Below the pieces are notes generated by a model. It was not told the origin of the DNA and ran no database searches. It saw only the letters and a list, made by a program, of their open reading frames with translations. This document shows, in pieces, positions 30,559 through 64,000 of a stretch of DNA of 64,000 bases (position 1 is its first letter; each line of letters begins with the position of its first letter). The translations under genes and the position numbers were made by a program. Source of the DNA: Escherichia phage vB_EQ1. The stretch lies in the sequence record PQ516281; one strand, 5' to 3'.

Positions 30559-31737
30559 TTAGAAATATTTTTTGTATGAATTGATTACATTTTGGTCTAC
30601 ATCATTATCAATTTGTGCGACAAGATAAGAACTGATTTCAACTTCCTGAGGAGCTGCTTGAACTAAATCAGAGTTCAGATATTCACGAATCCAAGGATAC
30701 GGATGCTTGGTCGGAGCATCAGTGATTGGGCATGGCAAACCACACTGTTTCATACGAGACACAGTCAAGTAATCAACAAAAGCACACATACTCTGCGTAT
30801 TGATACCTGGACATGTACCATCTTTAAAGAGGTGTGCAGCCCATTCCTTCTCTTGACTATTTACTTCCATAAAAATGTCAACTGCTTCTTGTTCACATTC
30901 TTTAGCAATTTGAACCCACTCATCACCGTCAGTACCAGATTGAAGTTGACGGATAATGTACTGAGTACCCTTGAGATGGAGTTGTTCGTCACGAGCAATG
31001 AACTTCATAATCTTTGCATTACCTTCCATAATTTCCATATTTTTATGGAAGTTGAAAGTACATGCAAATGATACGTAAAAACGAATAGCTTCTAAGGCGT
31101 TGATAACATGCAAACAGAGATAAAGAGACTTCATTAGGTCATGTTTACATTCTTCCATGTGCATAAGACTATTTGAATACGCATCTAAATCATATTCATT
31201 TTCGGAAAAACATTTAAAAATTTCTTTAGCATTTTCCCATTCACGGGTTTTAATCAGAACGTCATCATAATAACGTCCAATGGATTCAGCTCGTTTCATG
31301 ATTGCTTCGTCTAATACAATCTCATCAAATACTTTGGATGGATCGGTATAAAGATTTCGCATAATATGAGTGTACGAACGAGAGTGAATAGTTTCACTGA
31401 ATGTCCATGTTGCAACCCATGTATCTAATGAAGGGTCAGAAATCAGTGCCATAAGTACCGCAGATGGGGCCCTGCCTTGGATAGAATCTAATAATGATTG
31501 ATACTTAAGATTGTTTGTAAAGATGTCCTGTTGGAACTGAGGAAGCTTATTGAACTGCGCAGAGTCCAACATCAAGTTTACCTCTTCTGGGCGCCAGAAA
31601 AACGACAATTGCTTTTCAATAAGTTCTTCAAAAACTTTATGTCGCTGAATATCATAACGTGCGAGGCCAAGACCAGAACCAAAGAACATCGGTTCATTCA
31701 AAACATCGACTTGTTGCGTGTTAAAAACTGTACTCAT
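30559..31737 (-). CDS. nrdB: ribonucleotide reductase small subunit (intron-free)
   Basis: 392 aa contiguous ORF; di-iron/tyrosyl radical family. Confidence 0.95.
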   Translation of the reverse strand: MSTVFNTQQVDVLNEPMFFGSGLGLARYDIQRHKVFEELIEKQLSFFWRPEEVNLMLDSAQFNKLPQFQQDIFTNNLKYQSLLDSIQGRAPSAVLMALISDPSLDTWVATWTFSETIHSRSYTHIMRNLYTDPSKVFDEIVLDEAIMKRAESIGRYYDDVLIKTREWENAKEIFKCFSENEYDLDAYSNSLMHMEECKHDLMKSLYLCLHVINALEAIRFYVSFACTFNFHKNMEIMEGNAKIMKFIARDEQLHLKGTQYIIRQLQSGTDGDEWVQIAKECEQEAVDIFMEVNSQEKEWAAHLFKDGTCPGINTQSMCAFVDYLTVSRMKQCGLPCPITDAPTKHPYPWIREYLNSDLVQAAPQEVEISSYLVAQIDNDVDQNVINSYKKYF

Positions 31738-31792
31738 TATATTTTCTCACTTAGTTATTAACTCATCCATGAGTAAATTATAATCAAAAGTC

Positions 31793-62541: not shown

Positions 62542-62583
62542 AATTAAGCCTTATTAAAATTAAAATGAAGCTCCCAAAGGAGC

Positions 62584-64000
62584 TTAGGACATCCATTCTT
62601 TACGAAGTTCTGAATCATCACCCAACAACATTTCAAAGAGTTCTTTCCAATTTTCAGGAAGTTTAACTACGTCGTACACAGGGTTCTGAATCATTTCACG
62701 ATATTCTGACTTTTCAAGGGAGCCTAATCCCTTGATGTATCTAATACTATGCTTAGGCAGTGTATCTTTAACTTCTTCATACTCAGCTACAGTATAAAAC
62801 CATTTTTGAGTTTTGCCAATTTGTGCAATAATTACAGGCGTTTTAACAAAGCGAATACGTCCTTGTTCAAACAATTCAGGCCAATTACTAAAGAAAGCAA
62901 GCAAAGCCGGGTAAATACTTCCAAGACCGTCATGATCGGCATCGGTCATAATTGCAATATTACGATAGTTCGTATTCTCTGCCTTTTCACCAAGAATAAG
63001 ACCTGTGATAGCACAGATATCAAAGAGCTCTTTGTTCTTCATCATATCAGCATATGACATACCCCAGCTATTCATCACCTTACCACGTAATGGGAATCCA
63101 CCGTGTAGTTCACGGTCACGAACATCAATGAGATAACCAATTGCCGAATCACCTTCTGTTAAGAACAATGTCGTATCTGCATCTTTACCGCATTGGTTAG
63201 CTTTAATATGCTTATGAACCTTAGCTTTAGTTGCCTTTTTAGCTGCTTTAGTTTCTGCAGCCTTTTCTGCCGCCAATTTACGAGCTAATGCTGCTTCAAC
63301 AATAGGCATAATCAAGGCTTCGTTTTTAAGAAGTGCCTGAGCAATTTTCTTAGCATCTAATTGGATATGATTACGAATATCACCATACGTTGACGTTAAA
63401 CGTTCTTTAGTCTGAGAATCAAAACGCATGTTGCTCATGTCTCTAATAAACATCAACATTGTGAGACATTCTTTAACACGAGCTTTAGTGACTTCAATAC
63501 CCTTATATTTCTTTTTAATACCGGGCAAAAGATGTTCGCAGATATCATCCATTACGCATTCAACATGATGACCACCATTTTTAGTATGGATGTTATTCAC
63601 ATAAGTTAAATGACGGAAGCCATCTGGCGATGTTGTGAATGCTATAGAGACTTTATCATTTTCTTGAATGATATTATCTTCACCAAATTGTTTAGCAAAT
63701 CGTTTAAAATTACCATCAACCTTTTTACCATTAAATGTGAACTTGATGTCAGGATAAACGACTGCCAATGTTTGAAGTCGGTCTAAAGTAATATCTAAAT
63801 AAATTTGAGATAAATTATGCTCTTCAAATGAAGTGAAATCAGGAGTGAAGATTACTTTAGTGCCTTTACCTTTAGATTTCTTAGAAGACCATGATTTGTT
63901 TTCCATTCCGTTTGAACAGTTAACAGTGATTTCATTTTCACCATCTGACGTAATGCCTGTAAACAACGTAGAGAAGATATTAGTTAAACTACTCCCGACG
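62584..64000 (-). CDS. 39: gp39 topoisomerase II large subunit (GyrB-like), 5'-truncated by window edge; includes gp60-equivalent C-terminus
   Basis: TOPRIM EGDSA motif; C-terminus …KLPENWKELFEMLLGDDSELRKEWMS; frame stays open to nt 64000. Confidence 0.85.
   Translation of the reverse strand, partial: VGSSLTNIFSTLFTGITSDGENEITVNCSNGMENKSWSSKKSKGKGTKVIFTPDFTSFEEHNLSQIYLDITLDRLQTLAVVYPDIKFTFNGKKVDGNFKRFAKQFGEDNIIQENDKVSIAFTTSPDGFRHLTYVNNIHTKNGGHHVECVMDDICEHLLPGIKKKYKGIEVTKARVKECLTMLMFIRDMSNMRFDSQTKERLTSTYGDIRNHIQLDAKKIAQALLKNEALIMPIVEAALARKLAAEKAAETKAAKKATKAKVHKHIKANQCGKDADTTLFLTEGDSAIGYLIDVRDRELHGGFPLRGKVMNSWGMSYADMMKNKELFDICAITGLILGEKAENTNYRNIAIMTDADHDGLGSIYPALLAFFSNWPELFEQGRIRFVKTPVIIAQIGKTQKWFYTVAEYEEVKDTLPKHSIRYIKGLGSLEKSEYREMIQNPVYDVVKLPENWKELFEMLLGDDSELRKEWMS

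Follow-up and report, generated by a model that had tools for sequence, protein, structure and literature searches.

Unsplit gene 39 and intron-free td and nrdB in an RB69-type Escherichia phage

Three genes that are interrupted by selfish insertions in phage T4, namely td, nrdB and gene 39 (the large subunit of topoisomerase II), are uninterrupted in a 64,000-nucleotide stretch of the Escherichia phage vB_EQ1 genome (record PQ516281; the whole stretch is called the window hereafter, and positions count from its first base). We hold with high confidence that they are unoccupied alleles, expressed in the conventional manner, and that the topoisomerase would consist of two subunits, gp39 and gp52. 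Nothing was found that contradicts this reading. The genes concerned lie between positions 30559 and 64000, and their coordinates are collected in Table 1.

By nucleotide identity and collinearity, the window derives from a T-even phage of the RB69 type, genus Mosigvirus. With a 5.1-kb query taken from its right end, 143 phage records match across 80% or more of the query, mostly at 95-99% identity; the top matches are all RB69-like Escherichia phages of this genus, with more than 100 Mosigvirus records at 97-98%. A 24.9-kb query from the 30559-64000 region is 100% identical to OQ031495.1 (Escherichia phage MRostami-2023e) over 92% of the query and 94-96% identical to other Mosigvirus genomes, and comparison of the whole window also gives near-identity to OQ031495.1. 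GC content is 34-41% throughout. Compared gene by gene with the T4 proteins (BLASTP), the window follows the classical T4 order from gene 24/rnlB to gene 39: gene 24/rnlB, hoc, uvsW, the baseplate genes, alt, 30, cd, pseT, rnlA, denA, nrdB, nrdA and td, followed by frd, 32, 59, 33, dsbA, rnh, 34-38, t, asiA, motA, 52, ndd, denB, rIIB, rIIA, rIIA.1 and 39. Positions 1..20000 are 99.1-99.6% identical to OQ031495.1 and most of the remainder is 100% identical; the phage may be a sister isolate of that record or a recombinant, and not that exact record.

For gene 39, the frame is open from the stop codon (62584-62586) to the window edge, a distance of 471 codons. A listing of the gene as 460 aa with a TTG start is spurious and stems from the window edge: the frame is open to base 63999. 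The first-pass annotation of this DNA had described an unsplit open reading frame (ORF) that runs straight through the region corresponding to T4 gene 60. This holds directly for the C-terminal 471 codons; for the remainder, with the N-terminal ATPase part, it would follow from OQ031495.1, whose gene 39, 100% identical in the shared stretch, is a complete 605-aa ORF. The window protein is near-identical to RB69 gp39, with zero gaps or indels, and its alignment with RB69 gp39, T4 gp39 and T4 gp60 crosses the bypass site as well as the T4 39/60 split. Homology to T4 gp39 reaches as far as …ITGLVLGEKA, after which the 43-aa element-derived tail of the T4 protein diverges. The first 30 residues of T4 gp60 are likewise unrelated, and homology then extends from …NYANVAIMTDADHDG|LGSIYPS… to the C-terminus. 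The two homologous blocks are separated by ~1.1 kb in T4 and by 63 nt of ordinary coding sequence in the window, and the Toprim domain recognized by Pfam (partial-protein residues 277-385) continues unbroken over the point at which the T4 gene is split.

At the bypass site the window reads GAT CAT GAC GGT CTT GGA AGT (…DHDG|LGS…), whereas T4 reads GAT CAC GAT GGA TAG, followed by a 50-nt gap and then TTA GGT TCT. The codon equal to the T4 take-off site is Gly358 (GGT, 62928-62926), with Leu359 directly next to it. The CTE and NTE peptides and the bypass cassette have no remnant in the window (tblastn and blastn-short, best E at least 0.1, the similarity between homR and its target aside), which bears out the earlier statement that the gene 60 bypass and the mobA element are absent. 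A hidden bypass-like gap or intron, named beforehand in the first-pass annotation as counter-evidence, was sought by fine alignment and not found. As to homR, the element-borne T4 copy matches window positions 62927..62971 at 75.6%. Such similarity is expected because homR resembles the parental sequence, to which it is 67-81% identical (Manning and Atkins, bioRxiv 10.1101/2022.08.31.505936).

The td and nrdB genes are single continuous ORFs of 286 and 392 aa, as had been claimed, and the T4 introns of 1017 and 598 nt are absent from them. Pfam matches each protein as one full-length stretch, with Thymidylat_synt covering td from end to end. Searched against the T4 genome with tblastn, td falls into two collinear segments (residues 1-183 at T4 145112-144564, residues 184-286 at T4 143546-143238), and the 1017 nt that split the T4 gene have no counterpart in the window gene. 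Similarly, nrdB residues 1-225 and 227-392 map to two collinear T4 segments that flank the 598-nt intron. When rebuilt, the T4 splice junction is …CTTGGGT|CTACCG… in td and …TTTGCGT|GTACC… in nrdB. The window reads through the former, giving the same peptide as spliced T4, and is unbroken at the latter, where it reads IRFYVSFACTFNFHKN, again the same as spliced T4. The flanks of the td homing site are identical to spliced T4 at 32 of 38 positions, and the CAACG cleavage motif is retained. T4 intron DNA yields only chance matches of 11-24 nt in the window, and Rfam at gathering thresholds detects no group I intron, nor indeed a family of any kind, in the whole 64 kb. In nrdA, which is 87% identical to T4 NrdA, neither an intein nor another insertion was found with Pfam and by comparison with T4. 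RB69 and four other T4-like genomes have been reported to be without group I introns (Nolan et al., 2006; PMC1524935).

Homing endonuclease genes (HEGs) were sought with the full set of 15 T4 HEG products (segA-G, mobA-E, I-TevI, I-TevII and I-TevIII) and gp60.1, all taken from the T4 record. Against the six frames of the 64 kb these queries give a best E of 0.47 in tblastn, and the denA control reaches 8e-76 in the same search. Profile hidden Markov models (HMMs) of the T4 GIY-YIG (seg/I-Tev) and HNH (mob) families each recover all of their own T4 members at E <= 1e-18; in the window they find nothing but one weak match of 11.9 bits. The recovery of these positive controls shows that the absence of HEGs is not due to insensitivity towards T4-type elements. 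The weak GIY-YIG match (27177..27476, E 0.006) is noise: it covers profile positions 27-88 only, is Lys/Ala-rich, includes neither the GIY nor the YIG motif, lies outside 30559-64000 and receives only unrelated sub-threshold matches from Pfam. Every ORF of at least 40 aa that lacks a T4 counterpart was run against Pfam, PHROGs and, in part, NCBIfam; none shows a nuclease domain, and Pfam finds no HNH, GIY-YIG, LAGLIDADG or Hint domain among them. The only GIY-YIG protein in the window is denA, the host-DNA endonuclease II, which is not an HEG. The profile search beyond denA that the first-pass annotation had suggested thus adds no further domain, and its view that no seg, mob or I-Tev genes are present agrees with tblastn, HMMs and Pfam alike. 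Nor are there extra free-standing ORFs at the positions of T4 mobE/nrdB.1 and segG, where the window has spacers of 55 and 117 nt. The whole near-identical genome OQ031495.1 (169 kb, including 3.6 kb of N) also contains no T4-type HEG homolog, and RB69 is entered as 'None' in the published HEG table and stated to be 'predicted to lack HEGs' (Petrov et al., 2010; PMC2993671 Table 5). A seg-sized ORFan of 204 aa (20293..20907, minus strand), located near the T4 30.6 position, was checked as an HEG candidate and discarded, with no Pfam or NCBIfam match and no HEG similarity; it has no T4 homolog and belongs to PHROG 17531 (unknown function).

The gene next to gene 39 encodes a 366-aa protein that is 99.2% identical to RB69 ORF003c (NP_861693) and differs at 4 of 366 positions (~99% identity) from the solved structure PDB 9IQZ/9IR0, named by its depositors a glycosyltransferase subfamily 4-like protein. 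It falls within the GT-B (GT4-like) fold, and the profile libraries searched (Pfam, PHROGs and NCBIfam) provide no functional name for it. ORF003c was proposed as the RB69 arabinosyltransferase by Thomas et al. (PMC6024577). Later, the modified base was revised to arabinosylated 5-hydroxycytosine, and gp3 was proposed to be a second, beta-arabinosyltransferase (Lee et al., 2026; PMC13326640). The window protein may, following this proposal, add a second arabinose to arabinosylated 5-hydroxycytosine in phage DNA. The gene had been said to occupy the neighborhood of mobA and gene 60 in their stead. The neighborhood is correct; the replacement is not, since the gene lies downstream of gene 39 as it does in RB69. 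It starts 42 nt beyond the gene 39 stop and ends 92 nt upstream of rIIA.1, a placement also seen in RB69 and Bas46, and the order rIIA, rIIA.1, 366-aa ORF, 39 is common to all three. The MobA insertion point is inside the Toprim domain, a distinct site. The glycosyltransferase gene is an accessory one, specific to the lineage, and has nothing to do with the MobA site.

Why are the same genes interrupted in T4 and whole in this phage? In the RB69-type lineage, td, nrdB and gene 39 are very probably uninvaded 'empty-site' alleles of genes with selfish insertions in T4. In T4 the insertions are a pair of self-splicing group I introns, with I-TevI and I-TevIII, two free-standing endonuclease genes (mobE and segG), and the MobA element, which divides gene 39 into 39 and 60 and supplies the 50-nt bypass cassette. 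From empty-site alleles it would follow that expression in this phage is conventional, with neither RNA splicing nor a ribosome hop. Topoisomerase II would be built from two proteins (the 605-aa gp39, with an intact Toprim domain, and the 441-aa gp52) versus three in T4. This explanation takes the sites as probably never occupied rather than cleanly restored. In published comparisons, mobA is an insertion that splits the T4 topoisomerase gene relative to related phage (Edgell et al., 2010; PMC2988022), and the MobA/bypass element is inserted sporadically, each clade also containing close relatives that lack it, the 'parental' genomes (Manning and Atkins, bioRxiv 10.1101/2022.08.31.505936). The uninterrupted alleles are considered parental and T4 a heavily invaded outlier (PMC2993671 Table 5; bioRxiv 10.1101/2022.08.31.505936). 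The term 'streamlined', which the first-pass annotation had applied to this region and which suggests something derived or reduced, goes too far: the uninterrupted alleles are the parental state in the literature, and the window also has extra genes that T4 lacks. The state free of introns, HEGs and the bypass is already the published norm for Mosigvirus and for most T4-like phages.

It could be argued that introns, HEGs or the MobA element were present in an ancestor and later removed, either through precise deletion or through gene conversion with an empty allele as donor ('hit and run'), in which case the region would really be 'streamlined'. Post-insertion loss of endonuclease and bypass cassette has been recorded in Aeromonas and Campylobacter phages (bioRxiv 10.1101/2022.08.31.505936), close relatives differ greatly in HEG content (PMC2993671 Table 5), and no sequence trace would remain after a clean conversion of this kind. 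However, the documented hit-and-run cases retain CTE/NTE-coding remnants, and the window has none; its gp39 aligns collinearly and free of indels with that of RB69, traces of intron sequence are absent, and T4-type HEGs are missing both from the whole near-identical genome and from RB69. With no remnants, and with RB69 in the same state, secondary loss has no positive support and we regard it as very improbable. We give even less credence to a homing endonuclease of an unrecognized family among the small unannotated ORFs (for example 36037..36285, 51380..51766, 53780..53995, 56824..57087 and 57649..57987). These ORFs are indeed of 'unknown function' in PHROGs and have either no match or a domain of unknown function in Pfam. 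Nevertheless, they are only 71-128 aa long, where the functional seg, mob and I-Tev enzymes of T4 mostly have ~200-260 aa; they occupy the same positions in RB69 and Bas46 and so are not sporadic; they match no nuclease domain, and 51380..51766 corresponds to a gene annotated Arn in Bas46.

Three points do weigh against the empty-allele interpretation or its parts. For about 134 N-terminal codons of gene 39, which the window does not reach, the near-identical public record is the sole source. The HEG search consisted of T4-derived queries plus Pfam on the ORFs lacking T4 homologs, and such queries do not formally rule out an endonuclease of wholly new fold among the small ORFans. Finally, for RB69 gp3 itself the arabinosyltransferase activity is at the stage of a proposal (PMC13326640). 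A further idea concerns the cause of the empty sites: the absence of HEGs and introns might result from lineage biology and not from historical accident, Mosigvirus genomes being refractory to cleavage or to repair-mediated homing. This seems unlikely to us. The refractoriness would have to come, doubtfully in our view, from the arabinosylated 5-hydroxycytosine DNA combined with an RB69-type exclusion of, and non-recombination with, T-even phages. It would also have to hold despite recognizable targets (the td site with its 32 of 38 identical positions, and the MobA target), for which we see little likelihood.

In itself, the finding that td, nrdB and gene 39 are uninterrupted matters little and serves as a sanity check for correct annotation. 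The introns, homing endonucleases and gene 60 bypass of T4 are peculiarities of the T4 lineage and not core features of T4-like phages, and annotators are kept from imposing the split 39/60 model of T4 on this genome. The empty homing sites are now marked and could be used as recipients in homing experiments. The neighboring gene receives the label of an RB69 gp3-type DNA glycosyltransferase, which bears on DNA hypermodification and anti-restriction.

Table 1. Position of the genes, spacers and empty sites discussed in the text.
Feature	Position	Strand	Remarks
nrdB	30559..31737	-	392 aa, one ORF, intron-less
Empty site matching T4 nrdB intron (I-TevIII)	between 31062 and 31061	-	within Cys226 codon
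nrdA-nrdB spacer	31738..31792	-	55 nt; T4 holds mobE and nrdB.1 there
nrdA	31793..34048	-	751 aa, 87% identical to T4 NrdA
td	34600..35460	-	286 aa, one ORF, intron-less
Empty site matching T4 td intron (I-TevI)	between 34912 and 34911	-	by alignment with spliced T4
Gene 59-gene 32 spacer	37999..38115	-	117 nt; T4 holds segG there
Gene 52 (GyrA-like subunit of topoisomerase II, partner of unsplit gp39)	54181..55506	-	441 aa
rIIA.1	61148..61348	-	66 aa
GT-B (GT4-like) glycosyltransferase, RB69 ORF003c/gp3 ortholog	61441..62541	-	366 aa, between gene 39 and rIIA.1
Gene 39 (large subunit of topoisomerase II)	62584..64000, running past window edge	-	C-terminal 471 codons, unsplit
Unoccupied MobA-element target in gene 39	62926..62981	-	from …GEKA|ENT… break (~62981/62980) to Gly358 GGT

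Elsewhere in the window, several genes deserve mention. The RNA ligase 2 gene rnlB (205..1204, minus strand) is frameshifted: the break is at ~570-575, and the parts corresponding to T4 residues 1-213 and 213-334 lie in different frames. Compared with phage NicPhage (OY726582), whose gene is intact, the run CATTTAGGGGAAAC has one extra G, which causes the shift. OQ031495.1 shares this frameshift, which represents either a sequencing error or a pseudogene. The hoc ORF (1866..3284, minus strand) encodes 472 aa versus 376 aa in T4; the extra ~97 residues stand at the N-terminus, perhaps as an additional immunoglobulin-like domain, perhaps as an extension due to ORF calling. Between cd and cd.2 lies a gene for a 330-aa 3-deoxy-7-phosphoheptulonate (DAHP) synthase of the AroF/G/H type (24000..24992, minus strand; Pfam 1e-74, TIGR00034 5e-128), which is absent from T4 and, at that position, from RB69. 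The gene has the look of an auxiliary metabolic gene for the shikimate pathway. A T4-like nrdA.1 (34039..34344, minus strand) encodes 101 aa with 86% identity to T4, where RB69 and Bas46 have an 87-nt gap with nothing annotated. The tail-fiber tip module (46128..50240, plus strand) is of the T4 type, with a 1177-aa gp37 and a 183-aa gp38 chaperone that is 68% identical to T4 gp38; its counterpart in RB69 and Bas46 is a T2-type gp38 adhesin of ~258 aa, and the difference is a host-range module swap within the genus.

Compared with the T4 39/mobA/60 locus, the flanking topoisomerase coding sequence is homologous, with 77% amino acid identity to T4 gp39 residues 146-473 and ~79% DNA identity over the gene 60 part. 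The ~1.1 kb present in T4 and absent from the window contains CTE, the mobA pseudogene, 60.1, NTE and the homR copy, together with the stop codon and coding gap; the T4 take-off sequence GGA-TAG corresponds to GGT-CTT in the window, which keeps the 56-nt parental segment that the MobA element replaces. With respect to T4 td and nrdB, the host genes and their flanks are conserved in the window, while the introns, mobE and segG are absent and their sites empty. The gene 39 of T2, a Tequatrovirus compared here by its published description, is likewise a single Topo2L ORF containing the MobA target region, and this T2-type unsplit gene is a natural MobA recipient according to Bonocora et al. (2011), as cited in bioRxiv 10.1101/2022.08.31.505936. 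The closest known phages are RB69 (NC_004928, the type of the genus Mosigvirus), Bas46 (MZ501056), moskry and APCEc01. The window and the RB69 group share the order nrdB-nrdA-(nrdA.2)-td-frd…32-59-33…52…rIIB-rIIA-rIIA.1-ORF003c-39, a td of 286 aa, an nrdA of 751 aa, an unsplit gp39 of 605-606 aa and the lack of introns and HEGs. Their differences are mosaic: the window has the T4-like nrdA.1, the frameshifted rnlB, the DAHP synthase between cd and cd.2, and the T4-type gp38 chaperone with the 1177-aa gp37, whereas RB69 and Bas46 carry the T2-type gp38 adhesin in place of that chaperone.

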